Shown: positions 6,508-55,281 of the stretch, in pieces | Layout: every line of letters begins with the position of its first letter | Numbering within the stretch: position 1 is the first letter of the stretch | Source: a virus | Taxonomy: Duplodnaviria > Caudoviricetes | Strand: one strand, 5' to 3' | DNA length: 64,000 nucleotides | Virus record (IMG/VR): IMGVR_UViG_3300005686_000008 | Notes under the pieces: model-generated | The model's database searches: none | The model's input: the letters and a program-made list of their open reading frames with translations, nothing else | What the model was told of the DNA's origin: nothing | Made by a program: the position numbers and the translations under genes

Positions 6508-7258
6508 ATGAGTAGGTACAATAACGAATGGAACAAGGGCCTCCAAAATAAGGATCAGGAGTTGCTTTGACCCGTCTTCTATCCTTATTGAGATAAGGGC
6601 AGGCGAAGGCGGCGAAGATGCTAAAAACTTTGTTCATGAACTCGCCTCTATTTATGCGAAATACGCAGTAAGAAAGAACCTAAATGTCACGATAGTTGAT
6701 ATTGATAACGGTTCTTCAACTCTCGAAATCAGCGGTAAAGATTCATTAGCCGCTTTCGAAAACGAATCTGGTAAACACGTTGTTCAAAGATGCCCTCCTT
6801 CCGAAAGAAGCGGACGTAGGCATACATCAACTGTTTCCGTTGGCGTTCTTCCTCTTTTTGCTTTCAAATCAGCAGTTATAAGAGAAGAAGATATCGAAAT
6901 AACGTTTCAAAATGCTTCCGGCCCCGGAGGGCAAGGAGTTAATACATGCAAGAGCGCATGTAGAATGAAACATATTCCAACAGGGATAGCAGTCAAGTCT
7001 CAAGTTCATCGTTCTCCTCAACAGAATAAGTCTCATGCATATGCTTTGTTATGCGGAAGAGTGCAAGAACAGAAGTTTGCAGCGCAGAATAAAGAATATG
7101 CCGCAAGAAGAAAGAAAATTCTTGGAGATACTGGTAGGGGAGGCGCTAGAAGAACCTATTGTTTCTACAAAGGTTTTGTTTCCGACCATGTTACTGGTAA
7201 AAAAACTCACAACATCAAAGAAGTCGTTAAAGGAAACCTCGGCTTATTGTCGAACTAA
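6508..7258 (+). CDS. Class-I peptide chain release factor homolog (~249 aa) expressed via a +1 programmed frameshift at CTT-TGA-C (6565-6571)
   Basis: AAGGAG SD and ATG 6508; 20 codons to AGGAG-TTG-CTT-TGA-C; +1 frame reads DPSSILIEIRAGEGGEDA...FENESGKHVVQRCPPSERSGRRHTS...SGPGGQGVN..., continuous with ORF 6965-7258. Confidence 0.9.
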
Positions 7259-7281
7259 TTAATGTCTGGTCCTTTCATGTC

Positions 7282-7317
7282 GAGATGGACAGGATGGTGT
7301 CCTGTTCATCTCTTTTT
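7282..7317 (+). terminator. Intrinsic terminator
   Basis: GAGATGGACAGGA...TCCTGTTCATCTC-TTTTT. Confidence 0.75.
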
Positions 7318-7392
7318 GGGGTCTTAGCTCAATTTTGGTAGAGCGCGACGCTGGCAGTGTTGAGGTTACGGGTTCGAGTCCCGTAGATTCCA
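7318..7392 (+). tRNA. tRNA-Ala(GGC)
   Basis: G3:U70, CT-GGC-AG loop. Confidence 0.88.
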
Positions 7393-7395
7393 CTT

Positions 7396-7578
7396 ATGAA
7401 AAGAGCAAAGTCGGTTATTACAAAGATCAATGATAAAACAGGCAGGTATGAAAAGCTCTCTATAAAAGCTCCAAAAGGCACCAGAAAGGTCGGAGTGGAC
7501 CAGAATGGTGCTATTATTATCTATGATGACAAAGGGAATGTGGTTGCCTTTCGCAAGGAAGGCAATAAAAAGGAGTGA
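7396..7578 (+). CDS. Small basic hypothetical protein
   Basis: ATG 3 nt after tRNA-Ala. Confidence 0.6.
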   Translation: MKRAKSVITKINDKTGRYEKLSIKAPKGTRKVGVDQNGAIIIYDDKGNVVAFRKEGNKKE

Positions 7579-7617
7579 ATGGTACTGACGGAAGCATTTG
7601 ATTGTCGATGACAAAAT

Positions 7618-7756
7618 AAGACAAGTCGAAGCGTCTTAGGTTAACATTCATGCAAAGGGAAGCTTAAGATGGTTTCTCACTGGATGGAAACCAGCCCATG
7701 CTAGACATGGGAGCAAGTTGTCTGGATCCCTAGGAGCGCAGAACCTAACTTGTCTT
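7618..7756 (+). ncRNA. Y RNA-like RNA (3), degenerate tRNA module
   Basis: AAGACAAGT/ACTTGTCTT terminal stem with GTCGAAG motif; internal CTGG-ATGGAAA-CCAG followed by CCCATG/CATGGG hairpin. Confidence 0.6.
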
Positions 7757-7760
7757 TTCT

Positions 7761-7834
7761 CAGGGTGTAGCTCAGCTTGGTAGAGCGATTGGTTTGGGTC
7801 CAATAGGCCGCAGGTTCGAATCCTGTCTCCCTGA
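7761..7834 (+). tRNA. tRNA-Pro(TGG)
   Basis: CAGGGTG acceptor, TT-TGG-GT loop. Confidence 0.9.
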
Positions 7835-7837
7835 CTT

Positions 7838-8128
7838 ATGTATCAGAATACGCATACTCTTTATTATGGTTCTTTCTATTCTGCTGCTCGTAAATGGATT
7901 AATGAACAAACTTCTAAAGGTAAAACTGTAACAGTTAAAGCCTTCTGCGAACAGCACGATATATGTAAGAAATGTAAAGGTCTTGGTTGCGGAACATGCG
8001 GACGAAAAAGAATGCCATTTGAAGTATTCTCAACTCGTCAAACTAGAAAACAGAAGATAATGAAGAAACGAAGAAAGATGGAAAAGAAGATTCTCGCTAA
8101 ACAAGCCTTTGATAAAATATTCGGATAA
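7838..8128 (+). CDS. Hypothetical Cys-rich basic protein
   Basis: ATG 3 nt after tRNA-Pro; CKKCKGLGCGTC. Confidence 0.6.
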   Translation: MYQNTHTLYYGSFYSAARKWINEQTSKGKTVTVKAFCEQHDICKKCKGLGCGTCGRKRMPFEVFSTRQTRKQKIMKKRRKMEKKILAKQAFDKIFG

Positions 8129-8133
8129 GAAAC

Positions 8134-8454
8134 ATGAACGAGATACTTAATTCCCAATTCAACCCTTCTGATTACGGAATCGCAGTTGTTGATTTTTGGG
8201 CTGACTGGTGTATGCCTTGCAAGATGCTTCTTCCTATCTTAGAAAGATTTACTAGCGAGTTTCCATCAATAACATTCCTCAAGGCGAATGTAGATGAAAA
8301 CTCTGCACTTGCAAGAGACTATGGGATTAGCAATATCCCTACAATGCTTGTTTTCAAGGGCGGAAAACTTGTGGACAAGATTACTGGATTGTCAAGAGAA
8401 AGCTATCTTAGAGAAACTTTTGACAAGCTGATTAGTGAATCAGCTACGTCGTGA
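8134..8454 (+). CDS. trxA: Thioredoxin
   Basis: VDFWADWCMPCK; IPTMLVFKGG. Confidence 0.92.
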   Translation: MNEILNSQFNPSDYGIAVVDFWADWCMPCKMLLPILERFTSEFPSITFLKANVDENSALARDYGISNIPTMLVFKGGKLVDKITGLSRESYLRETFDKLISESATS

Positions 8455-9424
8455 TACCGTAATATCGAGAACCGAAAAGGTCGATGTTTCGGTATGAACA
8501 GTACACAATCTAGCATTGATGCGCAAAAGAGAAAAAAGCTTCTCGGTCTTCAAAAAGAATACCTTGAAAAAACGGTAAGTAAGCTCGATGCTATGATTGA
8601 ACTTTCTCAAGAACTGGAAAAACTTGACGACCCTGAACTAATCAAGGCGTACTGCGATAAGATAGACAGCCTTGATGCTGAGGTTTCGCAAGACTATTTG
8701 ATTGCTGTAAATATAGAAGGGATGTTACAATGAAATGCAAAAAACATCCAAAATATCTTGGAATTTATAAGCCAAGAGCAGAGTGTTCTGTATGTCATGA
8801 AATATACGCCGCCGAATTAAAGGCTAAAGAAATGGCAGAAGAGTTTGAACTAAACAAGACTCGAAATGCTAATAGTTATCTTGAAATAAAGAAGCTTTTT
8901 GACAAGCTTGGCAATCTTGGCCCTTATTGGAAAGACGTAGATATCAAGAAGCAGAAATGGGGTAAATGGAAGATAGAATCTTCTATTAGAGTAGATAATG
9001 GATATGGCGGCACTGTTCAGTCTGTAGTTTCCGAGGGAGACAACTTTATAGAGGTTGTGAAAGACTTCCTTGGGAAAATTGCAGAAAAAGATAGTCTATG
9101 CAAAGAAAGCTATATGTAATATGAGATGGAAAGTAAAGCCATCAAAACCAGAACCTGAACACGGAGATTTGAGAGTAGTCTCTAAGTTTCTATTTTTCCC
9201 ATTACGAATTGATGATAGAGTTCGTTGGTTAGAAAAAACAGAAATTGTGCAAAAGTACGTTAAGTATCGAGTTACGGAATATCCATTGTTATTTGGAAGA
9301 CCTTTTTGCTATATAACGGGACGATGGGAAAATCTCGGATTTGCAGTTCCAGATGAAGCGGATGTTATTGAGATTAAAGTAGATAAAGACGATCCTTACA
9401 ACGAAGTTTATGGTAAGGAATAAT

Positions 9425-9498
9425 CAGGGTGTAGCGCAGCTTGGTAGCGCGTGTTCTTGGGGTGAACAAGGTCGCTGGTTCGAATCCAGTCACTCTGA
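9425..9498 (+). tRNA. tRNA-Pro(GGG)
   Basis: tgttc-TT-GGG-GT-gaaca. Confidence 0.9.
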
Positions 9499-9503
9499 CT
9501 TAA

Positions 9504-9684
9504 AACCTGTTCTGTTTCGCTTCTAAGGCGAAAGTGACTGGGGCTACCGAACCTAGGCCTCGGGTCATAGGGTCCAGCTTATGCCAGGGATCACCCTAAG
9601 TAAAAATAAGGGAGCCGGCTCTGCTAATTACAGGGAACTTCCGAGAGTAATAGGACGTGAGGAAGTTGGCGAAACAGACAGGTT
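9504..9684 (+). ncRNA. Unassigned structured RNA (~180 nt)
   Basis: AACCTGTTCTGTTTCGC pairs with GCGAAACAGACAGGTT; GC-rich interior. Confidence 0.55.
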
Positions 9685-9868
9685 ATTTTATGAAAACAGA
9701 TGAAATAAACAAAGTTCTTGAAGAAGTATTTGGAAAAGGTAACTTTGTCTTGATATCTAGCGGCGGTCCTTCTAAAATGAAGCCTATTAGAATTGTTGGG
9801 AAACTTGTTCCTATCAATCCTAAGCCTAGAGTTCAGATAGTCGATTTTATAGATGAAAGGAGGTAGCA

Positions 9869-10684
9869 ATGACTGATTTTTACAAAAAGCCAGATCTACT
9901 TGTTAGAACTGGTTCTCATTTGTATGGTTGCGCAGTTGCGACCTCAGATGAAGATACGAGAGGTCTTGTTGTTCCTCCTGCTGAGTATTTGCTTGGTAGA
10001 AAGAATTGGGAACAACATGAAACCAAAGACCCGGACTGCGTAATCTGGAACTTTGCGAAGTTCTTTAATTTGCTTGAGAGGTTCAGCCCTAACACCGCTG
10101 AAATCTTATTTGCTCCGCAGGAACATATTATTGAGATTACTGAAGTCGGTCAAATGATGATCGATAACAAGCATCTCTTTGTTTCTAAGCAGCTTATCAA
10201 GCCAATGCAAGGCTTTGCCTTTGGCGAATGGAAGAAGGCTGTAGAATACTTTGAGCAACTAAGGAAACTTGGCGCTCAAAGAAAAGAGCATATTGCGAAG
10301 TTCGGGTACAGCGTTAAGAACGCATATCATGCAGTTCGTTTGCTTGAAGAGTGCATTGAGCTTCTTCAAACAGGCACGATTACGTTCCCCCGTCCAAACG
10401 CAGATTTCTTGCGTCAAATTAGACATGGAGAAATCCCTGTTGAAGTCGTCAAGGAAAGATACGAACAACTTGACAAGAGGGTTCCGCAAGAGGTTGCTAA
10501 CAGCAGCATCCCGGACTCTGTTGAAAAAGATAAGCTAGACAAGCTCTTCTATGATTGTATTAAAATGAAGATGGTCGGTTTTATGGCTGACAATTACAGT
10601 CTAGCATGTTCTGATCTTGGACTTGTTTTCAGTCACAATCACTTGTTCAATCCCAAATGGTACAGGGTTGAACAACCAACATAA
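9869..10684 (+). CDS. Pol-beta-superfamily nucleotidyltransferase (RlaP/YcgL-like)
   Basis: GSHLYG...SDEDTRG; C-terminal KNAYHAVRLL. Confidence 0.85.
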   Translation: MTDFYKKPDLLVRTGSHLYGCAVATSDEDTRGLVVPPAEYLLGRKNWEQHETKDPDCVIWNFAKFFNLLERFSPNTAEILFAPQEHIIEITEVGQMMIDNKHLFVSKQLIKPMQGFAFGEWKKAVEYFEQLRKLGAQRKEHIAKFGYSVKNAYHAVRLLEECIELLQTGTITFPRPNADFLRQIRHGEIPVEVVKERYEQLDKRVPQEVANSSIPDSVEKDKLDKLFYDCIKMKMVGFMADNYSLACSDLGLVFSHNHLFNPKWYRVEQPT

Positions 10685-10685
10685 T

Positions 10686-10713
10686 AAGAAAGGCCTCGAA
10701 AGGGGCCTTCTTT
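10686..10713 (+). terminator. Intrinsic terminator
   Basis: GGCCTC-GAAA-GGGGCC followed by a T-rich tract. Confidence 0.7.
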
Positions 10714-10753
10714 ATTTCTCGATTCAAATTTGGTCGATAAGACCGATATAGAT

Positions 10754-10880
10754 GGTTGCAGAGGCGGAATTGGCAATTTCCTTCTCGATAACTTACTCCT
10801 TACGGAGTCGATGTAGATAGGATTAACACGCAACGGGAGATAATCCTGATTTATGTAGGTTCGAATCCTACCTGCAACCC
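10754..10880 (+). ncRNA. Non-canonical tRNA-like RNA (8-bp acceptor, no anticodon arm)
   Basis: GGTTGCAG/CTGCAACC, T arm GTAGGTTCGAATCCTAC, two unrelated internal hairpins. Confidence 0.65.
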
Positions 10881-10885
10881 TTTTT

Positions 10886-10982
10886 GGCTAGGAGCAAATT
10901 CTTTGCTCACAAACTTGTCTCGCAAGAGGCCGACGAGAAAAGATTAACTGGAAGCGAGTGGGTTCAACCCCCACCCTAGCCG
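10886..10982 (+). ncRNA. Non-canonical tRNA-like RNA
   Basis: GGCTAGG/CCTAGCC-G acceptor, T arm GTGGGTTCAACCCCCAC; GCAA-tetraloop hairpin in place of an anticodon arm. Confidence 0.65.
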
Positions 10983-10985
10983 CTT

Positions 10986-11258
10986 ATGAGAAGATTAGAA
11001 ACGTTTCTTGGTTCTGATGGAAAATATCACCATGATGGTGATTGCTGGATATATGCAATTAACGGCGTTTGTACTTGCGGATTACTACACATTGTTAATA
11101 GAGATGCAGATAATCCAGATTATAAATGCTTGATGGAAAATCTTTGGAAGCATGAAGGGAATCTGCATTATCTTAACAACATAGAGATACCTAAGAGAGA
11201 ACCAATAAGTGATGAAAAATTCAAGGAAATAATGGAAAAGGCTGGTTGGAAAGTTTAG
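10986..11258 (+). CDS. Hypothetical protein
   Basis: ATG 3 nt after the tRNA-like RNA; HHDGDC...CTCGLLH. Confidence 0.65.
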   Translation: MRRLETFLGSDGKYHHDGDCWIYAINGVCTCGLLHIVNRDADNPDYKCLMENLWKHEGNLHYLNNIEIPKREPISDEKFKEIMEKAGWKV

Positions 11259-11322
11259 TGGATAACAACAATTTTGCATAATAACATTACTCATGTTATC
11301 GTGCAAAACGATGTTATGATAA

Positions 11323-11393
11323 GCGGGTATGATGTAATGGTAGCATATGACCTTCCCAAGGTTAGAGTCGGAGTTCGAGTCTCCCTACCCGCA
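11323..11393 (+). tRNA. tRNA-Gly(CCC)
   Basis: tgacc-TT-CCC-AA-ggtta. Confidence 0.9.
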
Positions 11394-11398
11394 TTAAT

Positions 11399-11470
11399 GC
11401 AGACGTAGCTCAGTGGTAGAGCGTCACGTTGCCAACGTGAATGTCGAGGGTTCAAGTCCCTTCGTCTGCT
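11399..11470 (+). tRNA. tRNA-Gly(GCC)
   Basis: tcacg-TT-GCC-AA-cgtga, U73. Confidence 0.93.
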
Positions 11471-11559
11471 TTTTGTGCTTAGAAAATTGCTTCAAAAGTT
11501 TCGTGCAAGGTTTGAGTTTGGCAATGAAGTCTCCGAAATCGCAGTAGGAGATTTCAGAT

Positions 11560-13488
11560 ATGCGCAAAGGTACGGTAATCCATCTTGATTCTGGCGAAAC
11601 ACTTCCTCATCAAGAACTCGCTATGGCCGATTTGGTCATAAACGGTAGTGTAATAGTCAAAAACCGTTACGGCTCAAATGGTGCTAGAATCCTAAACCCC
11701 TGTTCAGGGGCCTCCGGGCCTCTTGACAGGGGTATTTTTCGTGATTGGGAAATAGCAAATCACTTCGCTGCTACATTTGATGAACGAGTGAATAGTCGGA
11801 TTACTGAAATCCTAGACATTGTTCATGCTGTTTTTGGTGAAAATACAGATGACTATAATTGGTACTTCGATGGAGCAGAAGAAGGCCAAATGGGAACCAT
11901 TCATCTTCCAGATGATGATGAATCTCAGATATCTTACGTTTATGAAAACGAAAATAAATATAGCAAAAAGAAGTTCTTAGAAACAACTGAATGGGATTAC
12001 ACTCTTGGCATTCCTAAGAAGTTTTTGTTCATGAATGATGATGAAATTACTAAGTACATAGAAAAACAGATTGAAAGATGTTCCAAGAAGGATGCGCAGA
12101 AAAAAGCCAAGAGAGAGGCATCTAAAAAAGAGAAAGAACAGAAGAAGAAAGAGTTACTAAACCGTCTTTCTAGCGAAGAGAAGAAGCTATTAGGAATCAA
12201 AAAATGAAAAACGAATCAATACATAGGCATGTTTTTGTTTTCAACCCGCAAGATAACGGAGGCGAATCTCTTTCTCTTATAACCGACTTTATTGACAATG
12301 GAGACGGTCCAGAGGCCGGCATCTTTACAAACCAAGAACTCGGTTTGCAATCCTACTGCAACTCCGCATCGCTTCAACTAATGGGAGCCTCTTTTACTCC
12401 TGAAAATCTTCGTAAACTTGCAAATGAGCTTGAAAGTGCCTGGATACAGGCTAAGACAAAATGCGCTAAGAAATAAGAGGTTAATATGGCAAAAAGCATG
12501 ACAAAAAAGAAACCGCAAATGAAAGTTCCTCATAAGACTAATTGCCTTGGTGATTATGAGCTTGATCTAGAAAAGTATCAGTCCGAGGCCATTAAGAATG
12601 TCAATTGGAAACTAGGAGATTGGTGTATTTGCGAAATGGAAATTAAGCAAATAACTCAAATCGACAAGGATACTCTTCTTCCTACTACTGTATCTTGCGG
12701 GTATTTCAACACTGGCTGTAGCGATTGGACTCCTCATCTTTTCCCGCTTACTCTTAGAAACAAGACCATAGCAGCGTTCTATAGACGCTTGTACGATGAA
12801 CTCCATAAGAAGTGCCGCAATCTCAACTTTCCTGACCTTAATAGGTATTTCTGGAGCAAGTGCGACGAATGCTTATCCGCTAAAGAGCCAGATAAGGTTG
12901 GCAAGATGTGCGAAGAGATTCAAAGATTTCAAGAAAGTATTATTTCGGCAACAGATAATGCTCTTTCAACCAGAATTGATGGCGTAGAAATCTTTAGAAG
13001 ATAATGCCATGAAAAACGATCCAAGACTAAAGATGATTCTTGATAGACACGACTATTCGGTTGACACGATAGCGGATAGGAAAATATTTGCCCGGCAAAT
13101 ATTCATGGGCGGCGGGCATCCAACAGACCCAGAAAAAGACTTTACTGGTCAAGAGATGGTTCTTGTTCATCACTTGCTTGATGAAGCCTTTTCTCTTATA
13201 AGCGGAATGCAACAAAATGGCGGCATGGGTACTGAGTTTAACGAAGAAGAGCAATCTCAATCTCAACGAAAACTAAAAGCTATTGCCGATAATATAAGAA
13301 TCGCTTTACTTGGCGAAGAAAAAGAAGAACCTCTTGCCTGGCTCGTATTCTGTCCCAAAAATAATGAATATGACTACAGAGTTTATGCATACAAAGGCGA
13401 AGCAGAAGAAGCAGCAGACGAAAATAATCAATCGTTAGGAACAGACGAAGAACTTTTTGAAGTAATACCGCTGTATAGAAGAGATTGA
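11560..13488 (+). other. Run of four hypothetical phage genes (11560-12207, 12204-12476, 12486-13004, 13009-13488)
   Basis: Tightly packed or overlapping + strand ORFs. Confidence 0.65.
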
Positions 13489-13493
13489 TTTAA

Positions 13494-13575
13494 GCCACCG
13501 TGCCCCGAATGGTAAGGGACCGCTTTTGTAAAGCGGCGTCGAAAGATATTGCAGGTTCAAGTCCTGTCGGTGGCT
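13494..13575 (+). tRNA. tRNA-Thr(TGT) with long variable arm
   Basis: ccgct-TT-TGT-AA-agcgg; GCCACCG/CGGTGGC acceptor; extra arm GTC-GAAA-GAT. Confidence 0.8.
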
Positions 13576-13577
13576 TT

Positions 13578-15005
13578 ATGACTGAAAATAAAACAGAACG
13601 GAAGCCTCTCTATACCGTCGAAAGAGATGACGATTCTTTTCGTATATTTAGAAAAGGCTATGTGGATGCAACAGTGAAGATTGTTGATTCTGTTATTAAA
13701 GTAAGTATTGCTCCACATACGGAAAAAGATATGTTCGTAGGAGACTTCAGAGGATTGAAGAATGTTATTATTTCTGAAGTAAAAGGCAACTGGCTTAGAA
13801 ACGAAAAAGACAAGCATAAGAAGCCTAATAAAAAAGGTGCCGATTTCATTCATAAAGATTTTTCAGAATGGCTTGATAAGGCCTTCTCTAAAGGATTAAC
13901 ATATATTCTTTTCCCAGAATGGAAAAGGCTTGCAGACAAGGCCGATCCTAATATTCTCAAAATATACAAGAAGTTTATTTCTGTACGAGGACCAAAGGTT
14001 CAGATTCCTGATATATTGAAAATTGAGGCAACCTACAAAGACGAAGACTTTGTAAAAGATGCTCTTACTTATAATTCAATACACTTGTGCTTGGAAAAAG
14101 CAAGTATACTGAATGGAAAAGTTTGTTATGAAATAAGAGACCCCGAACACAGAGGGGGATATTTGAATTATGGAAACAGATATCATACAATGAAAACTCG
14201 CAATTGGAGACTTTTGTTTTCCGATTGTCCAACAACCTATAAAGCTCTTAATAAGACTTTAGATAACTGGCCTAGAGGAGTTCCTGCTCATATGGCTTTT
14301 TATCTTGCCAATATTCATCTCTCAGTGCCGGTTAGTGATAGAGTAAAGCTTATTGCCATTTTGCAAGCAGCTCAAACTATAAGGTATGCAAGACAAAATC
14401 ATCTTAACTGCATAATGAAATCAGAACCTGAGCAAATAAGAAAAGCATTCTATATACACAAAAAGAACCATGAAAGACAGCATCCATACAGTAAAGGGAA
14501 ACTTAACTTAAGAGGAAGCAAGTCTATTTGTAACTTTATTAGTACAACGTGCGATTTCCCTGAACCTCATCATGGAGGTTTCATTAAGCTTGCAGAAAAG
14601 TCCGATGAATGGCATCGCACTGCAAGATGGGAATTTGATCTTCCAAAGGATTTGGATACAAAAGACTCTCTAACAAAGAAACCGCTTATTCCGTTACCAG
14701 AACATAAAGAACTAAGATTCCTTGCTTCAATGAAAGAAATAAGAGATGAAGGTAGGGAAATGGGTCATTGTATAGCATCTTATGCCGAATCAGCCGTTTC
14801 TGGATCTTGTTTCCTTTTCCATTGCGATTATGAGGAAGAAAAGGCTTCCATAATGCTTGACAAGTATGGGAATGTTGTTCAATCTTTTGGTCCTAGAAAC
14901 TGTACTAACAAGGCTTCTCAATGGGCTTCGGCAGAACTTGCAAAATGGGGTAAAAAGATTGCTGAAATGTGGAATAGAGTCGAAGAAACTGCGGAGGTTT
15001 TCTAA
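13578..15005 (+). CDS. PcfJ-like domain protein (start corrected to 13578)
   Basis: C-terminal EIRDEGREMGHCIASY...QSFGPRN. Confidence 0.75.
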   Translation: MTENKTERKPLYTVERDDDSFRIFRKGYVDATVKIVDSVIKVSIAPHTEKDMFVGDFRGLKNVIISEVKGNWLRNEKDKHKKPNKKGADFIHKDFSEWLDKAFSKGLTYILFPEWKRLADKADPNILKIYKKFISVRGPKVQIPDILKIEATYKDEDFVKDALTYNSIHLCLEKASILNGKVCYEIRDPEHRGGYLNYGNRYHTMKTRNWRLLFSDCPTTYKALNKTLDNWPRGVPAHMAFYLANIHLSVPVSDRVKLIAILQAAQTIRYARQNHLNCIMKSEPEQIRKAFYIHKKNHERQHPYSKGKLNLRGSKSICNFISTTCDFPEPHHGGFIKLAEKSDEWHRTARWEFDLPKDLDTKDSLTKKPLIPLPEHKELRFLASMKEIRDEGREMGHCIASYAESAVSGSCFLFHCDYEEEKASIMLDKYGNVVQSFGPRNCTNKASQWASAELAKWGKKIAEMWNRVEETAEVF

Positions 15006-25846: not shown

Positions 25847-26191
25847 GGGGCCGATTTGGTATTCGACCTAGGAGAAATAAAGGAACGTTGCAAGCCGAGG
25901 AACATGCAGGACTCGTAAAAAGTATGTAACAAATCAACTGGCAACAGTTACGCAATGGCTGCTTAAACAAAGCGGCATGCAAACCCTAAGACGCAGATAT
26001 TGGGGCTAGCGAAAAACTTCTGCTGGACCTAACCCAATTTTCTTTCAGTAAGTTAGGTTAAGAATAAGTGAAAGATGCTTTCTGCGAATGGTATCGGTGC
26101 TAGGCGTAGAACTAAGACAAAACATCGAAAAAGCTTGTAGTAACGCCTTGAAAACTTGCTAGACACGCGGGTTCGAATCCCGCCGGCTCCA
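25847..26191 (+). ncRNA. ssrA: tmRNA, tag (A)GNSYAMAA
   Basis: GGGGCCG...TTCGAC 5' end, GCGGGTTCGAATCCCGCCGGCTCCA 3' end with G3:U70, tag ORF 25940-25966. Confidence 0.93.
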
Positions 26192-27081
26192 TTAGGTGAA
26201 TTATGATTTGGGAATATAAAGTAGTAGCATCCGAGACTGGCGCATCCTCAACAAGATGTTACACAGACCAACTAAACTCTTTAGGAGAGCAAGGTTGGGA
26301 AATGTGTGCAGAAACTGCTGGTGAGTTTTTGGTATTCAAAAGACCAAAACTTGAAAACTCATTAGAAGAAGAAATCGCAAAACTTAAAAAAGAAAATGCT
26401 AGACTTCTAAGCGAAATAAAAGAACCAAGATGTCATAGTTGTCACGCCATACTTGGCGATAATTGGTGCGCAGACTGTGCCAGTAATGCAAATAAATAAA
26501 GATAGGAAAATGCTATGTACCACTGGATGAGATTCGCTCCCTTGTAATGTTCCAACATTACAAGGAGAGTTAAATGAACAAAGCAGAACGAAGGTCTCGT
26601 ACAGAGAAGATTGCAAAGAAGCGCTTCCGTAGGTTATATTGCAATTATCACGGAACTCCAGAAAACTGGCTCTTTTATCGCAAAAGTCAAAAAGATAGAG
26701 ATGTTCTGTACGGAAAGTGCAGAAATGGCGTAAACTCTTGGCGTTGTCGCTGCGAATATTGCCTTGGAAGAGTTTTTCGCGCACAAAGCATTGCTGATCT
26801 AAACTTTAGAGAAGGATTACAAGATGCTATGGAACTTAATATAAGTTTCAGCATGGCATTTCCTAATGTTTTAGATCCAAGTAGCACTGGTCCCTATGAT
26901 TGGGGTCATGAAAAATGGCATCTTCAAGTTTGTCCTTGGCCTAGCGCCTGGAATATGGGCAACAGATTCCATAATCAAAAATAAACCAACTATAGACAAT
27001 GCCTTCTTTGAAGGTTAATTGTTAATATGGCTTGAAATATATTCAACAGTAGGTATATTATGTCTACTGAATGGAGATACT

Positions 27082-41220: not shown

Positions 41221-41245
41221 TATTTTCAACAATAAAGGATTATAA

Positions 41246-45741: not shown

Positions 45742-45749
45742 AGATAAGA

Positions 45750-47258: not shown

Positions 47259-48305
47259 ATGAAGGATACTATGGAAGCGAAAGCGATCCTGTCAATACCT
47301 GAAAATCAACCTGAGAGAATCTTCCCGAATTCGGAAGATGAAGCAAAGAGTGTTTTCCGGAAGTTGATAAAAGAGTGGCATCCAGACCACAATAAGAGCA
47401 GCGAAGCTCAGCAGGTAACATCTCACTTGCAAAAACTCTATGACGAGGTAATCGGTCGTATTCAAAAAGGAACCTGGTCTCTTCCTAACACCCTAACTTT
47501 TAAGGGTGTTGATGGTAAAGTTAGAACGGTCAAGTATCGTCGTAAGCGCAGTTTTGAACTGGGAGATTTTGCATACGGCGATAGAGTTGTATGCTATGTA
47601 GTAAAACCTGATTGCAAAGACTTGTTTGGCAGGGGACTTGAAACTATCAAGCATGGATTCAAGTACGAAAACAAGGAAATGGAAGAGGAAATTTCCAGGT
47701 ATCTTCCTAATCCTCTTGATTCTTTCGAGACTCAAGACGGTCATATGGTTCTTGTTCTTTCAAAGACTCCTGACGTTTTCCTGCTTCAAGATGTGTTAGA
47801 CCATTTCGGCGGAACTATTGATCCGAAGCATGTGGCATGGATTGTAAGCTGCATGCTTAATCTTGCATGCTACATGAGATACGCCGGAATAACCCATAAC
47901 GCGCTGTCAACAACCAATCTCTTCATTTCTCCACAATTTCATAGCATGGTCATACTCGGAGGTTGGTGGTATTCACAAAAAGTAGGGAAAAAGCTTGAGG
48001 CACTTCCTAGAATGTCGGCAGATATCGCTCCTATGGAGATGTTGGCCGATAAGATTGCAGACCACAAACTAGACCTTATGCTTGTCAGGGATATTGGGCT
48101 GGAACTTCTTGGTGATTCTTCTGGTTCTACTTTGCTACATGATGGCAAGACTCCTCAACCGTTAGTCAATTTCTTTAGAAGCATTACTGATGGTAACGCT
48201 TTTCAAGAGTATGAACGTTGGACGAAAAAGATTCTGATTGACAGTTTCGGCAAACGTCGCTTTGTCGAAATGAAAATTGAAGCAAGCGACATTTATAAGG
48301 ATTGA
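47259..48305 (+). CDS. J-domain plus kinase-like protein
   Basis: KEWHPD; C-terminal HVAWI...GITHNAL...GGWWY. Confidence 0.75.
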   Translation: MKDTMEAKAILSIPENQPERIFPNSEDEAKSVFRKLIKEWHPDHNKSSEAQQVTSHLQKLYDEVIGRIQKGTWSLPNTLTFKGVDGKVRTVKYRRKRSFELGDFAYGDRVVCYVVKPDCKDLFGRGLETIKHGFKYENKEMEEEISRYLPNPLDSFETQDGHMVLVLSKTPDVFLLQDVLDHFGGTIDPKHVAWIVSCMLNLACYMRYAGITHNALSTTNLFISPQFHSMVILGGWWYSQKVGKKLEALPRMSADIAPMEMLADKIADHKLDLMLVRDIGLELLGDSSGSTLLHDGKTPQPLVNFFRSITDGNAFQEYERWTKKILIDSFGKRRFVEMKIEASDIYKD

Positions 48306-48308
48306 ATA

Positions 48309-49217
48309 ATGGGAAATTCACGTTGGGATAGCGATAGTTGGACGAGTTATAGCGCTTCTGTTTCTTCGGCCCCTCGCGCAGCCATTTTTACCAGTAATGG
48401 AATGGATGATTCCCTTGATCCCAAGAAGATCAAGTTCCGTGAATCTGTTGATTCGGCTGCAAATCCGAATTCAACTCCCATTATGATTGGGGTTGATGAA
48501 ACTGGTTCAATGGGCGCTCTTGCTGAACAGATTATCAAGGAAGGCCTTGGAATCGTTATGAAGGAGATTTACGAGCGCAAGCCCGTTACTGATCCTCATT
48601 GCCTTTTGGCCGGCGTTGGCGATGCTGCTGCTGACCAGTCTCCTCTTCAGGTGACTCAGTTTGAGGCGGCTGTTGAGCCTTTGACAAAGCAGATTGAGAA
48701 GATTTACCTTGAAGGTAATGGCGGCGGCAACAACGGCGAGTCTTACAATCTCCTCTGGTACTTCGCTGCTCATAAGACGAAGTGCGATGCGATTAGCAAG
48801 CGCAAGCGCAAGGGGTATCTCTTCACTGTTGGTGACGAGAGGGTTCTTCCTAGCCTTACGAAGAGCCAGATCCAGAGGATTTTCGGCGATGATGTAGAGT
48901 CTGATATCAAGACCAAGGATCTTCTCAATCAGGTGAAGAAGCACTGGGAAGTCTTCCATATCATCGTTGAAACCAGCGCAACAAGGGATCAGGGCGCTAT
49001 TGAAAACTGGCGCGAGATTCTTGGCGAACGTGCTATCGTTATCCCCAACAAGGATAGTCTCGCAGAGATTATTGTTTCAACCATTCAGGTCAACGAAGGC
49101 GCTGACGCTGATAAGGTTGCTGATTCTTGGGACGGTTCAACTGCTGTTGTTGTTCGCGATGCTCTCAAGAACCTGAGTAAGTCATCCAGCGGTTCGAGCG
49201 ACCTGGTTCGCATGTAA
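48309..49217 (+). CDS. vWA-domain protein
   Basis: DETGSMG MIDAS-like motif, EGNGGGNNGESY, FTVGDE. Confidence 0.8.
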   Translation: MGNSRWDSDSWTSYSASVSSAPRAAIFTSNGMDDSLDPKKIKFRESVDSAANPNSTPIMIGVDETGSMGALAEQIIKEGLGIVMKEIYERKPVTDPHCLLAGVGDAAADQSPLQVTQFEAAVEPLTKQIEKIYLEGNGGGNNGESYNLLWYFAAHKTKCDAISKRKRKGYLFTVGDERVLPSLTKSQIQRIFGDDVESDIKTKDLLNQVKKHWEVFHIIVETSATRDQGAIENWREILGERAIVIPNKDSLAEIIVSTIQVNEGADADKVADSWDGSTAVVVRDALKNLSKSSSGSSDLVRM

Positions 49218-49242
49218 TCTCGCTTCAACAGGAGAATGTTAG

Positions 49243-50502
49243 ATGAACGTCACGGCAGTCATTGGCGCTAACTTCGGAGATGAAGGCAAGGGCCTAATGA
49301 CCGATTATTTCAGCGATAAAAAGACTGTCGTGGTACGACATAATGGCGGAGCGCAGGCTGGACACACTGTTGTTACTCCTGATGGTATTCGCCATGTATT
49401 TAGTCATTTTGGTAGCGGTACTCTTGCGGGTGCCGCTACCTTTCTTGGCCCTCGCTTTATTATCAATCCTCTTCTCTGGAAGAAAGAATTGGGGATTCTA
49501 AAGAAGATGGGTTTTGACCCAAAGGTTTTCTATGCTGGCGGGCTTGTAACCACTCCGTATGACATGCTAATTAACGAAGAGATCGAACGGTCTCGCGGAG
49601 ATGGTCGTCATGGCTCTTGCGGCGTTGGGATTAATGAGACAGTAACCCGTCATTATTCGGAAAAGTTTGCTTTTCCTCGTCTTAGGATTGACTCTAAGTG
49701 TAATATCCTGACTCGCAATAAAATTGTCAATACCGTAAAAAATATTCGCGACGAATATTGCGCTGCTCGCATCAAGGAGATTGGACTTTCTCCCAAGGCT
49801 TCATTCTACAGTATTTTCAATTCCGAAGCCTTACTTGAACGTTATGTTGACAATGTTATTGAGTTTGCCGAGCATTGCATCGAAATCAACACGGATGCCC
49901 AGGGTCTTAGAACTATGGGCATTCATCTTGGCGGCGAAGTCAATAACCTTGTGTTTGAAGGAGCGCAAGGTCTCCTTCTTGATGAAGAGCATTATTTCTT
50001 CCCTCATGTAACTAGAAGCAAGACTGGCCTAAATAACGTTCTTGATATTTGTCGCCAGTTTGAAATTAAAGAGGCTGATGCAACTTATGTTACTAGAGCG
50101 TATATGACCCGTCATGGACAAGGCCCATTTCCTAGCGAAGAAAAAGAACTCAAGTACGAAGATAAGACAAATGTTACTAATGAGTTTCAGGGAAGCCTTC
50201 GTTTTGGCTCTCTTGATGTTGACCTTACAAGCAAGGCTATTAGGAACGATCTTATCCTAGCTAGCGATAGGTTCTTTGAGCATACTGGTTGGGAACCCAT
50301 CAAGGTAAATCCTTCAATAGCTATTACCTGTCTTGATCAGGTCGGAAAAGAGATTTGTGTTTATGATGATGGAGAGAGATTTACTCTCAATGATGTTAAT
50401 GATCTGGTAGATATTTTTGTTGATAAGTGTAATATCCATGATTTTTATACAAGTTATGGCCCAACAAGAGCAAAAATATCTCCTCTATGCGTTGGAAAGT
50501 AA
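49243..50502 (+). CDS. purA: Adenylosuccinate synthetase-like protein
   Basis: GANFGDEGKG, GGAQAGHT, FEGAQGLLLD, TRHGQGP. Confidence 0.88.
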   Translation: MNVTAVIGANFGDEGKGLMTDYFSDKKTVVVRHNGGAQAGHTVVTPDGIRHVFSHFGSGTLAGAATFLGPRFIINPLLWKKELGILKKMGFDPKVFYAGGLVTTPYDMLINEEIERSRGDGRHGSCGVGINETVTRHYSEKFAFPRLRIDSKCNILTRNKIVNTVKNIRDEYCAARIKEIGLSPKASFYSIFNSEALLERYVDNVIEFAEHCIEINTDAQGLRTMGIHLGGEVNNLVFEGAQGLLLDEEHYFFPHVTRSKTGLNNVLDICRQFEIKEADATYVTRAYMTRHGQGPFPSEEKELKYEDKTNVTNEFQGSLRFGSLDVDLTSKAIRNDLILASDRFFEHTGWEPIKVNPSIAITCLDQVGKEICVYDDGERFTLNDVNDLVDIFVDKCNIHDFYTSYGPTRAKISPLCVGK

Positions 50503-51336
50503 TAAATGGATAACATACTGTTTGACATTCGAGGCGATAAAGGGCAGTTCAAAGCCGCAATGGATTATATCAAATCTATTGCTCCAGGCGGCAAAGCCGT
50601 TCGCTATGCTATTGTTCCCACAAAAGGATTGGTTCTTTTCTGGCATGAACAAGATGATAAAATTGTTAAACTAGACTTCCCGTATATAACAGATCCTAAA
50701 TGGAATAAGGATACTGCCAAATCTTTTAATGTTGAACTTAAAAAGTTTGATATTCCTTGGGAGAAGTTTGTAGAGGCGTGGGTTTTTTCTACAGATCCTA
50801 CTCAGTTTGAACTTGATGAATGGGAAAGAGACCTAGAAGATTTTGATGGTAGCACTGGTAATGGTTTTAGAATAACTTGCGATACATGGGGTCATGTTGG
50901 TGGAAACCATTATGCATTTGCTATCATAAAGCCGATTTTTGCATGGTATGGCAAATAAAAGGAATTGAAATATGAGTATTGGAACCTCAGAAGCAAAGAG
51001 TATGCTCAAGAAATGGAACAGCCTTCAAAAGGTTGCTGATAAGCTAGGTCTTTACATTTCTGATGAATATTCAGATCAAGACTATGAATATGTAGTTGTC
51101 CCAAAGAATATGAAGAGGCATCTTCCTGTCCTTATTGGTCTTCATGATCAAAATGGGTTCCGCAACAATTTCCCAATTTGGTATCTTGAAAATATGGATA
51201 GCATTTTAGACTTCCTTGGAGGCATTGCGCTTTCTCAAGGGAAAGTCTTGACTGTAGAAGATAACGATCATGACAAATGGATTCTTGCAGATCCTGAAAA
51301 GTTTAGCGCTAAAGACCTGAACAGGGATTGATATAA

Positions 51337-51410
51337 GCCCCCGTAAGCTCAATGGTAGAGTTAGGAGTCTCTAAAACTCTTTGTTGCAGGTTCGAGTCCT
51401 GCCGGGGGCG
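51337..51410 (+). tRNA. Amber suppressor tRNA (anticodon CTA)
   Basis: ggagt-CT-CTA-AA-actct; GCCCCCG/CGGGGGC acceptor; canonical D and T arms; G73. Confidence 0.85.
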
Positions 51411-51413
51411 TTT

Positions 51414-51626
51414 ATGGATTTCAAGTATTTAGAACGAAAGCATGGGAGGGCTTTTGTTGTTCAATTGAGAAAAGATTTCAAGGATTTTGAAACTCATATT
51501 AACAATGGAGGCTTTGTTCCCGGCGGAGGCTGGTGCAGCTGTCACGAAAGATATGACTGTCCATGCTGGAAAGAAAGATGGCCTGACCTTGCAAACGAAC
51601 CTTATCCAAGAAAGAAACAATTATGA
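51414..51626 (+). CDS. Hypothetical protein (start corrected to 51414)
   Basis: ATG 3 nt after the suppressor tRNA. Confidence 0.6.
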   Translation: MDFKYLERKHGRAFVVQLRKDFKDFETHINNGGFVPGGGWCSCHERYDCPCWKERWPDLANEPYPRKKQL

Positions 51627-52947
51627 TTTATGCATTTGCATGGGATTGCTATTCTAATCAGCCTTGGCTCTTTGTAGCTAAAGACGAACAAGAAATGCTT
51701 GAAAAGCTAAAGAGAGAGTTCAAAGAGATAGGTAATACTCTCAAAGAACTAAAAGAAAATCTTCGCAAGTCTGATTTTGGGCAGGGGTCTAGGGGTGGAA
51801 ATTTTGAAATCGTAACCCCAAGAGAACCAAAATGAAATTTGAGATAGAAGGTAAAGTTCTTATTGCAAATCAACGGCAAGTAAACGGCCCGGATACTTGT
51901 CGGGAGTTAGATATTACTTACCTGTGTTCCATGCAAGATGCTGATGGCGATTTTATTGGAAATGATAATATCCATATTTCTCTTCCTTATAATATGAAGT
52001 TCAAAGAATCTGCTTTGATGAATATGGAAGGTAAAAGGATTAAAATAACAGTTGAATTGGAGACAGCGTAAATGTACACAACTCTTTCTCTCAAACAAGT
52101 TGACGAAGTTTTCAAGAACGATGGTCTTATTTTAATCATTCTTCATGAAAAACATGGGACTCGTAACGTTGTATCTGAATCTTCTGATGGTTTTTTCAAG
52201 TTCTTTCTTGAACTTCTTAAGGACCGCAAAGATTTTGGCTACTTCCATGAGCCTGATGAACCTCAGAGTCCAAGCATGTCAGAAGATGCTGCTAATGCAT
52301 TACCAGCTGGACCTGTCAAGAAAATGGCTTTGGCAGAAATTGAAAACTACAAGCAAAGTCTCAGGTTCTACAAAAATGATAGAAACGAGTTCTTGACTGT
52401 CAATAAGGCGCTGGAAGAGGGAAATGGTCGTCTTGCTTATTCTATACTTAAATCTCGTTCCGATATGGGAGCTGAGTACGAAGAAATGACAGTTGAAGAG
52501 CCGGAGTATGCCTAATGGTTAAGACAACTATTGTTGAAGTGAGTCAGTTTCTTCCTCCGAATGGTAGAAGGATTGTGGCTCAAGTGGAACTCCCGTCTCA
52601 TATTAAAGAAAAATACGAATCTATTATAAGTAGCGGATGTAGACTGACTTATGAGGTTCTTGGCAATGGCGTGGCTTCTATGACAATAGAAGAACCCGCT
52701 CTTGGCGATTTCGTGATTAGGCTATCTCCGTCTGGTCAAAAAGCCGATTTGGTTCTTACCAAAATGATTGAGTCCTTTAACCAAGAGGAATTCGATAAAT
52801 GGAAGAACCAAAGAAAACAATTCATGTAAAAGATTCCAAATCCGCCAGCGAACAAAAAACTCCGCAAGGCGGCAAATATCACAAGTATATCTTTAAGAAA
52901 ACTCGCCCAAATAGGTTTTCTGCTGCCAAAAATAATAGGCGAGATCA

Positions 52948-53895
52948 ATGACAAAATATGATCTTTACAAAAGAAATGAAAAAATGATAAGGGAAGAATG
53001 GTTCAAAAACCATATTCCTGAGCTTGTCATTTTTCAAGATGATTTTATCAAAATCAAATGGAAAGAACCCGGTACATGGAATATGGCCGTTGTTTACTAC
53101 ATTGACTGTAAGATGGCTTATCTTATGGTTGCTGGTGATCTTGGAGAAGCAACTTATCAATGGTCAGCCCCGATTAGTCTTGATTTCGTCGGCGGATGCA
53201 ACTTAGATTACTTCAATGGCAAATGCAGAGCGAGTTCATGCGGAGAACGAGGCCAAGAGTGGAGTCAGGAAGTTGCAGAAGATTGGGTTCGTTCCTATAT
53301 TGAAGATCATACTCTTGGAGAAGATCAAGGCGATTCTATTTTCGAGTCTTTGTTTTCAGATGGATATGTTGAAGGTCTTCTCAAAGAAAAAGACCCAGAG
53401 ATTGCTCGCTTCTATACAGAAGAAGACTACAAGAGTTGGCGAGAGATTTCTAGAGAAGAAAAAAACAGGTTTATTGCGATTGCCAAAGAATATCTAAGCA
53501 ATCTTGCTAAGACTTCTGAGTGGAAGAAGTTTAGTAAGGTTGATTATCGCAGAGAACTCATTGAAAAGCAAGAAAAGTTTGAGGATTTAGGCCCTGACGC
53601 TATTGGCGCTTGCGAATCTGAGTTTTCTTGGCTTAGGTGGATAGGTGATAATGGATACGAGTTCTTTGGTGATGACTACTACGAGTTTGGAGATATTGGA
53701 CGCACCATATCTCTTCGGGTTCAATCTCACCTAATTGGACTAAAAATGATTCGCGAAGGTATACTTGCCGGCAAGTATATGAATCCTAGTACCAGATGTC
53801 CCTGGCTAAAGTTTTCGAATTGGTTCAGGGGGAAGTTCAAAAAAATCACAAAAATCCGTGGTCCCAGGCTAAACTTTCTGCGGAAAAGCCGATAG
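52948..53895 (+). CDS. Hypothetical phage protein
   Basis: 315-aa ORF with LMVAGDLGEA motif. Confidence 0.65.
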   Translation: MTKYDLYKRNEKMIREEWFKNHIPELVIFQDDFIKIKWKEPGTWNMAVVYYIDCKMAYLMVAGDLGEATYQWSAPISLDFVGGCNLDYFNGKCRASSCGERGQEWSQEVAEDWVRSYIEDHTLGEDQGDSIFESLFSDGYVEGLLKEKDPEIARFYTEEDYKSWREISREEKNRFIAIAKEYLSNLAKTSEWKKFSKVDYRRELIEKQEKFEDLGPDAIGACESEFSWLRWIGDNGYEFFGDDYYEFGDIGRTISLRVQSHLIGLKMIREGILAGKYMNPSTRCPWLKFSNWFRGKFKKITKIRGPRLNFLRKSR

Positions 53896-53904
53896 AGTAA
53901 GAGT

Positions 53905-54063
53905 AGAGTTGTTCGGAAAGTCTGGTATATGTCTCGTATAAACCCTTTTGAAGGCGGGGCAAGCCGCCGCCCGTAAGAGGGGTAGGGTGTAAAAGTACAC
54001 CACCTATGATCAGGGTGGAAGTTGGCTCCCAACCAGCGTTTACCAGATTTTTCGAACAACTCT
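53905..54063 (+). ncRNA. Unassigned structured RNA or leader upstream of the Pth gene
   Basis: ~23-bp closing stem AGAGTTGTTCGGAAAGTCTGGTA/TACCAGATTTTTCGAACAACTCT. Confidence 0.65.
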
Positions 54064-54081
54064 GCATAAAAGGAGTTCAAA

Positions 54082-55281
54082 ATGACGTAGGTACAAACAC
54101 AACCCGTATACTTGTATGTTCTCGTAAGGGAAGACCTTACACCCGTTTCTCAAGTCGCCGTTCAATCGGCGCATGCGGTTATTGAGGCCATTCGAACCTT
54201 TGCTCCCGGCTAGAACCAGGAACATCCGCATCTTGTTCTTCTTTCCGTGAAAAACGAAGAAGAGCTACTGAAGGCCCATGATCGCCTTCAGTATTTTGGC
54301 ATTCAGGTCGCCAAGTTCCAAGAACCTGATTTACTTCGCAAAATTGATACAAAACTTCTTGTAGACCGAAGTAATCCAGTTTCTAAACTGATCAATGGTC
54401 ATCGAGAGTTTAGCAATGTTGCAAGTTTTGCAACATGGAACACAATTTTCTTTGGTATACCCCAAAGAATTGTCAGTTCTATCAATTCCATTATAAACAA
54501 ACCCTCTTTTGCTAAATGGCTTAAGTATTGTTGCTGGTTTTTGACCACAGTATATGCAATCGCTTTGTGTAAGCCTCTTAATATCTTCAAAAGACAAATT
54601 AAAAGATTTGTTTCGTTCTTTTGCACTCTTCTTGTAACTAGCAAACAAAATATTGAAAGGTCCATCAGGATTCCTGATCGAAGTTTTCCAACTACATCCG
54701 CAATTATCGGAAATTCCGCTTCTGAGATTGTGTCCAGAAACAATTTTTTGAGTTCCGCAGGAACATTTACAAAGAAAATACCTACCTCTTCCAGTTATAT
54801 GAGAGGGGCGAGGAACTACAGAAATGACCTTCCATTTCCCGTAAACTTTGCCTGTTTCATCTTTTCCAGTGTTTTGAGTTTGACCAAGGCAGCCACAACT
54901 TTTACTTGTTCCATTGCGAAGACTCTTGCCCATTACCATACGTTGTGTTTTATTAGGACATTGGCATTCGCAAAAGAAAAACTTTGCACTAGAAACAATC
55001 CCTTCAGGTTTTTTGCCTTCAGAAATAACCTTCCATCTACCAAAGATACTACCAATAGGAATTTCAATTTTCATATCCCCTCCAATAAAGTAGTATCGAC
55101 TGTTTCTTCAATAAACAATAATTGCGATAGTTACGAAATAACAGCTATCGCTACGGAACCGCTTCCTGCGGACTCCAAGCTGCGCCGCAAGTTTAGTTGC
55201 TACAACCTTCTCAATTTAGATCCTGGCGAAACCTCTCAAAAAGAGACTGAGCTATCCCCTGCGCGAAAGGAAACTATATGA
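54082..55281 (+). CDS. PTH2-like peptidyl-tRNA hydrolase with in-frame TAG at codons 3 and 44 and an ~800-bp in-frame insertion
   Basis: AAGGAG SD; MT*VQTQPVYLYVLVREDL...QVAVQSAHAV...G*NQEHPHLVLLSVKNEEEL...FQEPDL [insert] YEITAIATEP. Confidence 0.8.
54331..55074 (-). CDS. HNH-type homing endonuclease inserted antisense in the Pth gene
   Basis: Two FGRWKV...CxCxC...SCGC modules; CIYCG...NGIDRTDNSLGYTKENCVPCCKTCNIAK; GGAGGGG SD. Confidence 0.9.
   Translation of the reverse strand: MKIEIPIGSIFGRWKVISEGKKPEGIVSSAKFFFCECQCPNKTQRMVMGKSLRNGTSKSCGCLGQTQNTGKDETGKVYGKWKVISVVPRPSHITGRGRYFLCKCSCGTQKIVSGHNLRSGISDNCGCSWKTSIRNPDGPFNILFASYKKSAKERNKSFNLSFEDIKRLTQSDCIYCGQKPATILKPFSKRGFVYNGIDRTDNSLGYTKENCVPCCKTCNIAKLSMTIDQFRNWITSVYKKFCINFAK

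Follow-up and report, generated by a model that had tools for sequence, protein, structure and literature searches.

The textbook case of a gene gauging its own product is programmed +1 frameshifting at CUU-UGA-C, which to our knowledge is regarded as unique to release factor RF2. In a 2025 survey of 12,753 bacterial genomes the programmed frameshift is known in prfB and not in prfA, and TAG never occurs in the prfB motif (PMC12421855). Here we analyse a 64,000-nucleotide stretch of DNA (the window) from the virus record IMGVR_UViG_3300005686_000008 (Duplodnaviria; Caudoviricetes), corresponding to bases 155170-219169 of this single record of 494,120 bp with 40% G+C. The public runs that contain the sequence are bioreactor-sludge metagenomes. 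The window carries a release factor (RF) gene behind a prfB-type frameshift cassette, as well as a gene resembling the peptidyl-tRNA hydrolase PTH2 that contains two early in-frame TAG codons and is accompanied by a tRNA with anticodon CUA. On balance, we lean towards reading these as two separate conserved recoding devices within the translation toolkit of a huge phage using the standard code, and not as an obligate pair.

The genes carried by huge phages include those for RF1, RF2, tmRNA and further translation factors (PMC7162821). In the stop-recoded phages (Lak, crAss-like, Jade and Agate), suppressor tRNAs pair with RF2 where TAG is recoded and with RF1 where TGA is recoded, and are also found in relatives with the standard code; the in-frame stops of these phages have been proposed as a way to tie expression to the tRNA (10.1101/2021.08.26.457843). 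The present phage resembles these in encoding both a tRNA of the suppressor type and a release factor, and in having in-frame stops that may make expression depend on the tRNA. It differs in its standard code, its 85 TAG-ending genes, the restriction of gating to one small family, and a factor that is RF1-type and not RF2. Jumbo phages have been described as encoding PTH2, with no mention of in-frame UAGs or of linkage to a CUA tRNA (PMC7824862). The gene product analysed here shares a Pfam match and a modelled PTH2 fold with those proteins and with archaeal enzymes (PDB 3erj, 2zv3 and 1xty), whereas the phage family lacks the canonical Gly-Lys motif and has its own His/EHPH/Asp set. In the literature searched, we came across neither an RF1-type gene with a frameshift cassette nor a UAG version of the cassette, and no PTH2 gene described as both gated by UAG and associated with a CUA tRNA.

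The RF gene, on the plus strand, is located inside a tRNA array. A Shine-Dalgarno (SD) element, GAAAGGAG (6494-6501), was read from the sequence and is conserved in three relatives (L001-L003). It precedes an ATG at 6508 that opens a zero-frame leader of 20 codons followed by UGA (6508-6570), the leaders of relatives having 5-60 codons. The leader runs into a prfB-type cassette, CAGGAG-TTG-CTT-TGA-C (6556-6571), which consists of an SD-like CAGGAG (6556-6561), a 3-nt spacer, CTT (6565-6567), TGA (6568-6570) and C (6571). The initial reading of the sequence alone, made without database searches (the sequence-only reading), had placed CTT-TGA-C at 6565-6571 ahead of a GGQ release-factor homolog; this was confirmed, with the SD-like element present and the register correct. 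The body of the factor, 229 amino acids long, follows in the +1 frame (6569-7258). As no ATG, GTG or TTG occurs in this frame between 6512 and 6965, a position well beyond the GGQ, a +1 shift from the leader appears to be the only evident route to the RF protein. A terminator-like hairpin with a 14-bp stem and a T run, identified by pattern match only, is located 3' of the gene (7282-7312, plus strand). Directly upstream of the gene is a 126-nt tRNA-like gene (6330-6455; Rfam tRNA 34.8 bits, uncalled by ARAGORN) with an insertion of ~50 nt, which may be an intron-bearing tRNA.

The phage factor appears to be RF1-type and not RF2, as judged from profile scores, nearest hits and motifs. The NCBIfam models scored 199 bits for RF1, 158 for RF2, 74 for PrfH and 34 for ArfB. 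All of these scores fall under the equivalog cut-offs (199 against 400 for RF1) because domain 1 is missing, model positions 1-102 being unmatched. Pfam aligned only positions 98-194 of the 194 in PCRF, plus the RF-1 domain, and the full four-domain architecture of RF1 (prfA) is thus not present. The closest cellular proteins are all RF1, from Nitrospirota and other phyla, at ~43% identity. The decoding loop QRCPPSE corresponds to the RF1 pattern Q-R-x-P-x-T-E with Ser replacing Thr. The factor has the GGQ motif as well as the Gln of VQR, which is the RF1 Gln two residues ahead of Pro (Q181 in T. thermophilus). The tripeptide is PPS in the clade of the window and PPT in most relatives, while the SPF tripeptide of RF2 is absent from the factor. 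PrfH and ArfB likewise keep a GGQ domain and lack the N-terminal domain, but the phage factor scores far lower against them than against RF1 and retains domain 2, which reads the codon, including its PxT-like loop. RF1 and RF2 constructs lacking domain 1 have been reported to keep codon-dependent release in vitro and to lose the response to RF3. An RF1-type sequence predicts that the product would not read UGA. If UAA and UAG are the only codons it reads, the cassette would have to follow a logic other than plain self-regulation.

To place the cassette in its family, 74 RF loci were gathered from viral and metagenome collections and classified by script, yielding 58 distinct members. In-register CTT TGA was found in 32 of these, CTT TAG in 13 and CTT TAA in none, giving a cassette (CTT with TGA or TAG, in register) in 45 of the 58; the 13 members without one include several with a plain SD and ATG. 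An SD-like element accompanies ~70% of the cassettes, as estimated by eye from the table. All eight further RF loci on contigs of metagenome-assembled genomes (MAGs), assigned to Obscuribacterales, Melainabacteria, a cyanobacterium, Pirellulaceae and Parcubacteria, carry the cassette, mostly as CTT TAG C. Among the nearest relatives, the three IMG/VR loci L001-L003 (81-86% protein identity), CAGGAGTNNCTTTGACCC is unchanged while the flanks vary. Phylogenetically, the short factors of phage type group in a single clade (SH-aLRT 100), apart from bacterial RF1; the tree was built without RF2 reference sequences, and the RF1 assignment is independent of it. Within the tree the cassette stop has been swapped between TGA and TAG at least 3-5 times, even between close sisters, and no correlation of the stop with the decoding tripeptide was seen among the 58 members. 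The proposed check on conservation of the early TGA thus shows the cassette to be retained in most RF relatives, with either of two stops.

In its parts and spacing (SD, 3-nt spacer, CUU UGA C), and in its position early in a class-I RF gene behind a short zero-frame leader, the phage cassette matches that of bacterial prfB. It departs from prfB in that the gene is RF1-type without domain 1, the cassette lies directly ahead of domain 2, and relatives also use UAG. Because the bacterial survey lacks both a prfA frameshift and a TAG-type motif, we consider the phage cassette a real variant of the prfB device. In the proposed mechanism, a ribosome starting at ATG 6508 would pause on the weak stop UGA-C and slip +1 on CUU, aided by the SD-like CAGGAG 3 nt upstream. 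This would amount to the prfB mechanism transplanted onto a class-I release factor of RF1 type lacking domain 1, and output should rise whenever the cassette stop is decoded slowly. Because the product looks RF1-type, the version with UGA would not be self-regulating; it is probably a reporter of host RF2 activity, or else just fixes the yield.

The sequence-only reading went further, relating the UGA cassette to prfB frameshifting, which reports low RF2 activity, and regarding it as one half of an integrated pair of sensors. In this pair, the cassette would report weak host RF2 and in-frame UAGs elsewhere would report weak host RF1, each leading to phage-encoded enzymes for termination and drop-off rescue. 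The selected cassette is the part of this claim that holds. It is also in keeping with paired sensors that the cassette stop is restricted to UGA and UAG, each depending on one host factor, with no instance of UAA. However, an RF1-type product cannot cure an RF2 shortage, and the exchange of UGA and UAG between close relatives argues against a fixed assignment of channels.

The second device centres on the PTH2-like gene, whose N-terminal part (54082-54330, plus strand, 83 codons; Pfam PTH2 E=4e-6) starts at an ATG preceded by AAGGAG and contains TAG at codon 3 (54088-54090) and codon 44 (54211-54213), as had been noted from the sequence alone. The C-terminal part (55125-55281, plus strand, start approximate) was located by alignment to the C-termini of uninterrupted homologues. 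Its TGA overlaps the start of a downstream gene (ATGA; 55278-55841, plus strand) for a 187-residue protein with no family match, and the same overlap is found in two homologous loci (L075 and L080). Residues 11-81 match Pfam PF01981 (PTH2) with 27.4 bits against a gathering cut-off of 23, and the profile of the phage family matches archaeal Pth2 structures. An AlphaFold model of the product displays a confident PTH2 core formed by residues 1-85 and 350-380, for which all top Foldseek hits are Pth2 with probability 0.99-1.0.

In Pth2 a Gly-Lys (GK) motif before helix 1 holds the proposed catalytic Lys. This motif is missing from the phage family, aligning to a gap or to Ser-Gln; the family's own invariant residues are Arg16, Asp18, Gln28, His31, Glu35, the EHPH motif and Asp83. 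Because the GK motif is absent, we refer to the gene as PTH2-like and to its product as a putative hydrolase. A PTH2-like domain is also found in the cultured phages XacN1, Xoo-sp13, CM1 and RAS14, and in XacN1 (AP018399.1 243756-244595, L240) and RAS14 it forms the C-terminal part of a hypothetical protein of ~260-280 aa. Another phage gene of the window, at 56707-57897, matches Pfam Porin_O_P (E=1.8e-13), and a member of the same family adjoins the PTH2-like gene in locus L077.

None of the close homologues read (L075-L083 and L185-L190; ~67-99% protein identity) lacks either TAG. The conserved contexts are ATG-ACN-TAG and CCN-GGN-TAG-RAC-CAR-GAA-CAY, with flanking codons that vary synonymously. 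The 82 codons that span the two stops have a dN/dS of 0.04-0.2, with synonymous change close to saturated (pS ~0.6). No in-frame TAG was found in neighbouring genes on the contigs of the close homologues. Far more distant huge phages retain the early TAG before the first strand, as M-x(1-4)-TAG, and several of them also retain the second TAG ahead of the EHPH motif. Sense codons in homologues and a decayed hydrolase gene, named at the outset as grounds for abandoning the idea of gating, are thus not what was observed in the close homologues. Because the stops are invariant amid near-saturated synonymous change and low dN/dS, they appear to be selected recoding signals and not errors or decay. 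Re-initiation past the first TAG was considered and fails for the second, which is flanked by invariant residues, with no start before an EHPH motif that would be lost. Hence, read-through of both TAGs would be the parsimonious reading.

One homologue departs from this pattern. The 436-kb phage IMGVR_UViG_3300017388_000001 (G005) has a UAG-type RF cassette and, ~2 kb from its RF gene, a PTH2-like copy (G005:C1:216500-217500, L090) with an internal deletion and a frame change. A reciprocal arrangement in G005, with a UAG cassette on the RF gene and TGA in the PTH2-like gene, was considered and rejected, as this copy is rearranged and has its early TAG intact. Elsewhere in G005, near 333987 on the minus strand, a homologue of G000:260491-261109 begins M-K-T-Y-W-TAG, the TAG position being Ser in three other phages; this may be a second early-UAG gene of that phage.

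The PTH2-like gene of the window is interrupted by an HNH homing-endonuclease gene of 247 aa (54331-55074; PHROG 374 HNH endonuclease, E=1.5e-21), which is antisense to it on the minus strand, codon-aligned with it and equipped with its own SD. PTH2 homology breaks off after codon 83 (…FQEPD) and picks up ~795 bases further on, the interruption extending from 54331 to ~55124. A related phage (G001) has the same HNH insert at the same site, with 66% protein identity. In an uninterrupted allele from another metagenome (L076), exon 1 is 97.7% identical and the codons just past the insertion site differ synonymously, the pattern expected near a homing site. No Rfam intron was found around the HNH gene at E<=1 and no intein-like residues at its junctions. 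Given these two results and the opposite orientation of the HNH gene, a homing endonuclease borne by an intron or intein was rejected.

In neither phage does the PTH2 frame (399 and 389 codons) meet a stop anywhere in the insert. The chance of such a frame, calculated from the HNH proteins and the genome codon usage, is ~1e-3 and 4e-4, respectively; among 115 other genes of comparable length, a single one has a stop-free aligned antisense frame. The insert is of low confidence in the AlphaFold model. From the frame, it seems likeliest that ribosomes translate straight through the antisense HNH gene, either giving a hydrolase with a large loop or keeping the coupling to the next gene. The HNH gene looks like a homing endonuclease that is tolerated by antisense translation-through, with no intron or intein involved.

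The interruption, together with the degraded appearance of the rearranged G005 copy, could be taken to mean that the RF and PTH2-like genes are pseudogenes or products of assembly error. Identical stops are, however, found at identical codons in dozens of independent assemblies, and the frame stays open through the insert in both interrupted copies. Moreover, dN/dS is far under 1 and reaches only 0.07 for exon 1 between the two HNH-interrupted copies, indicating strong purifying selection. We regard broken genes or assembly errors as extremely improbable.

Upstream of the PTH2-like gene lies a tRNA gene with anticodon CUA (51337-51410, plus strand), of the amber suppressor type, which the sequence-only reading had pointed out and which both ARAGORN and Rfam (54.8 bits) call. 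It folds as a cloverleaf with the CUA anticodon in a 7-nt loop, as expected for an amber suppressor. The orthologue in G001, 2 kb upstream of the PTH2-like gene, matches it exactly in the anticodon loop and shows three compensatory changes in the stems. Six further phage records of 123-488 kb were taken in full, and each carries a same-strand CUA tRNA 0.2-6 kb upstream of its PTH2-like gene, making seven of seven in all. The CUA tRNAs of the seven records are mutual best matches among all tRNAs present there. ARAGORN called 71 tRNA genes in the genome of the window, 16 of them within the window; the CUA tRNA stands by itself, apart from three large tRNA arrays. Its closest non-suppressor tRNAs are Lys-CUU and Arg-CCU/UCU. 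No consistent residue occupies the second TAG site in homologues.

The co-occurrence of invariant TAGs and a CUA tRNA in homologues is what the sequence-only reading had proposed to look for. In contrast, its attribution of the UAG gate to host RF1 fell away, as synteny ties the gate to the phage's own suppressor tRNA. For the same reason read-through would be supplied by the phage and not sensed from the host, which counts against paired sensors. We propose that in this device a tRNA(CUA) is followed by the gene for a divergent PTH2-fold hydrolase with two selected in-frame UAGs. The hydrolase would be made only if the phage tRNA outcompetes RF1 at both UAGs, and since both must be read through, output would be approximately the square of read-through.

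Scanning IMG/VR with a profile of the PTH2-like family gave 55 loci, 38 of which have a CUA tRNA within 4 kb. Where the gene bears TAG, the tRNA is mostly upstream; next to the TAG-free genes (group B, starting M-K-L-Y-V...) it is usually found 40-100 nt past the stop codon. Because TAG-free PTH2-like genes are also neighbours of a CUA tRNA, the partnership between hydrolase and suppressor tRNA is broader than gating, which is limited to one sub-group. Such a partnership would suit a self-limiting loop, in which the PTH2-like enzyme acts on the acylated or peptidyl form of the suppressor tRNA and damps suppression or clears up its consequences, with the RF1-type factor as a second brake. Also consistent with a loop is the replacement of the canonical Pth2 lysine by the invariant His31, EHPH and Asp83, as well as the cost that unrestrained suppression would have in a phage with 14% of its genes ending in TAG. 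The substrate of such a loop is conjectural, however, and adjacency could equally mean co-transcription or co-transfer. We consider a loop of this kind very doubtful.

The genome was found to use the standard code, with TAG as a functioning stop codon, and the genes of the window are tightly packed on the plus strand under this code. Reading a stop as sense merges long open reading frames (ORFs) in 10 cases for TAG, 32 for TGA and 50 for TAA, which parallels ordinary stop usage (TAA 317, TGA 200 and TAG 85 in a crude set of 602 genes). Since there is no excess of merged ORFs with TAG or TGA read as sense, and 85 of the 602 genes end in TAG, genome-wide recoding was ruled out. The many genes with in-frame TAG and the low coding density under code 11 that characterise TAG-recoded phages (code 15) were likewise not seen. 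No enrichment of back-up stops was found near the TAG-ending genes of the crude set. The base after natural TAG stops is T in 35 cases, A in 29, G in 11 and C in 10; at the gating TAGs it is G or A, which is not decisive.

To assess whether gating is gene-specific, seven phage records were translated with TAG (or TGA) as X and compared all against all. Only X positions in frames without overlap by a longer standard-code gene were kept, and the scan covers the genes common to the genome of the window and the six other records. The PTH2-like gene is the sole case of a conserved in-frame TAG in the genome, other matches being tRNA sequences or runs of N, and no conserved in-frame TGA was found among the shared genes. 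An earlier scan for TAG-extended genes based on codon usage gave only weak candidates, mostly within tRNA regions; it was insensitive, having missed the PTH2-like gene itself, and was replaced by the cross-genome scan. The view that gating is specific to particular genes in a genome otherwise under the standard code is thus supported by stop usage, ORF merging and the seven-record scan. The companion claim that only two genes have early stops holds within the genes shared among the records scanned.

These data also bear on whether the UAG gate is a timing switch, or the beginning of a code change, along the lines of Borges et al., whereby the suppressor tRNA builds up, expression of the UAG-containing gene is delayed until late, and a first step towards TAG recoding is taken. 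Suppressor tRNAs in standard-code relatives and stop-gated late genes have been described (10.1101/2021.08.26.457843), and the solitary position of the CUA tRNA, distant from the large tRNA arrays, would fit this view. However, the same single family is gated over a very deep divergence (RF identity ~40%) and TAG has not spread, as for a stable end state. In addition, its factor is RF1-type, opposite to TAG-recoded phages, where RF2 is present. A timing switch or nascent code change therefore seems quite unlikely.

The relation between the two devices was assessed from their distribution. A TAG-bearing PTH2-like gene and a CUA tRNA are present in all seven large phage records chosen via the RF, which are non-independent samples. 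In the other direction, an RF match is missing from six of ten large records chosen via the PTH2-like gene, two of the six being rated 100% complete, and a PTH2-like match is missing from two of three RF-bearing MAGs. As each module occurs without the other in other records, the devices are separable, and the claim of an obligate pair was not sustained. The complete set of RF-chosen records favours paired sensors, as do the action of both gated genes on peptidyl-tRNA and the presence of a tmRNA gene for ribosome rescue (25847-26194, plus strand; Rfam RF00023, 108.9 bits, missed by ARAGORN) between the RF and PTH2-like genes. Against this, the modules are found apart in both directions, and within the window the two genes are 47 kb apart. 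We judge integrated paired sensors unlikely, and an obligate paired sensor is not shown by these distributions.

Two separate devices remains the reading we favour; the two modules frequently occur together in phages of one kind, and they may influence each other, since the RF1-type factor and the CUA tRNA would compete for the same codon. Several considerations nevertheless weigh against it. The signals, their conservation and synteny, the purifying selection and the standard code are direct observations; frameshifting, UAG decoding by suppression, tRNA charging, RF specificity and the hydrolase substrate are predicted from sequence, and for a putative hydrolase without the GK motif the substrate is uncertain. 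A strong suppressor should be costly in a genome with 85 TAG-ending genes among 602 and without enrichment of back-up stops, and an RF1-type factor would work against the phage's own suppressor. Many TAG-free PTH2-like genes adjoin a CUA tRNA, so that the partnership is more than lock and key. Finally, the tRNA/PTH2-like module in seven of seven RF-chosen records leaves room for a functional link.

A stop-codon homeostat can also be imagined, a virus-encoded circuit in which the short RF1-type factor and the CUA tRNA, along with the PTH2-like enzyme under UAG gating, would jointly determine how UAG is decoded in the infected cell. Within it, tRNA and release factor would compete at UAG, the doubly gated hydrolase would read out the balance and correct it, and the frameshift cassette would feed termination capacity back to factor synthesis. 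We hold this circuit to be a speculative and rather improbable reading. If true, such control would operate in phages that never altered their genetic code.

Two further observations concern the translation-related content of the genome. No SmpB gene was found in the genome by a PF01668 search. Outside the window, at G000:C1:149451-149532 in the main tRNA array, ARAGORN called a tRNA with a four-base anticodon (aggt) and an enlarged loop, which could be of the frameshift-suppressor type or a miscall. Among the public runs listed, none was an RNA run for 53900-55400.

The frameshift device, so far associated with RF2, is seen here on an RF1-type factor, together with a UAG version that is absent from the survey of 12,753 genomes. 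Suppressor tRNAs of standard-code phages were not known to have a clear client gene, and the conserved module of tRNA(CUA) and PTH2-like gene supplies one. The PTH2-like domains of cultured jumbo phages offer systems in which the enzyme can be studied. Together, the two devices, both small and accessible to reporter assays, could reveal ways in which viruses adjust termination and read-through while their code stays unchanged.

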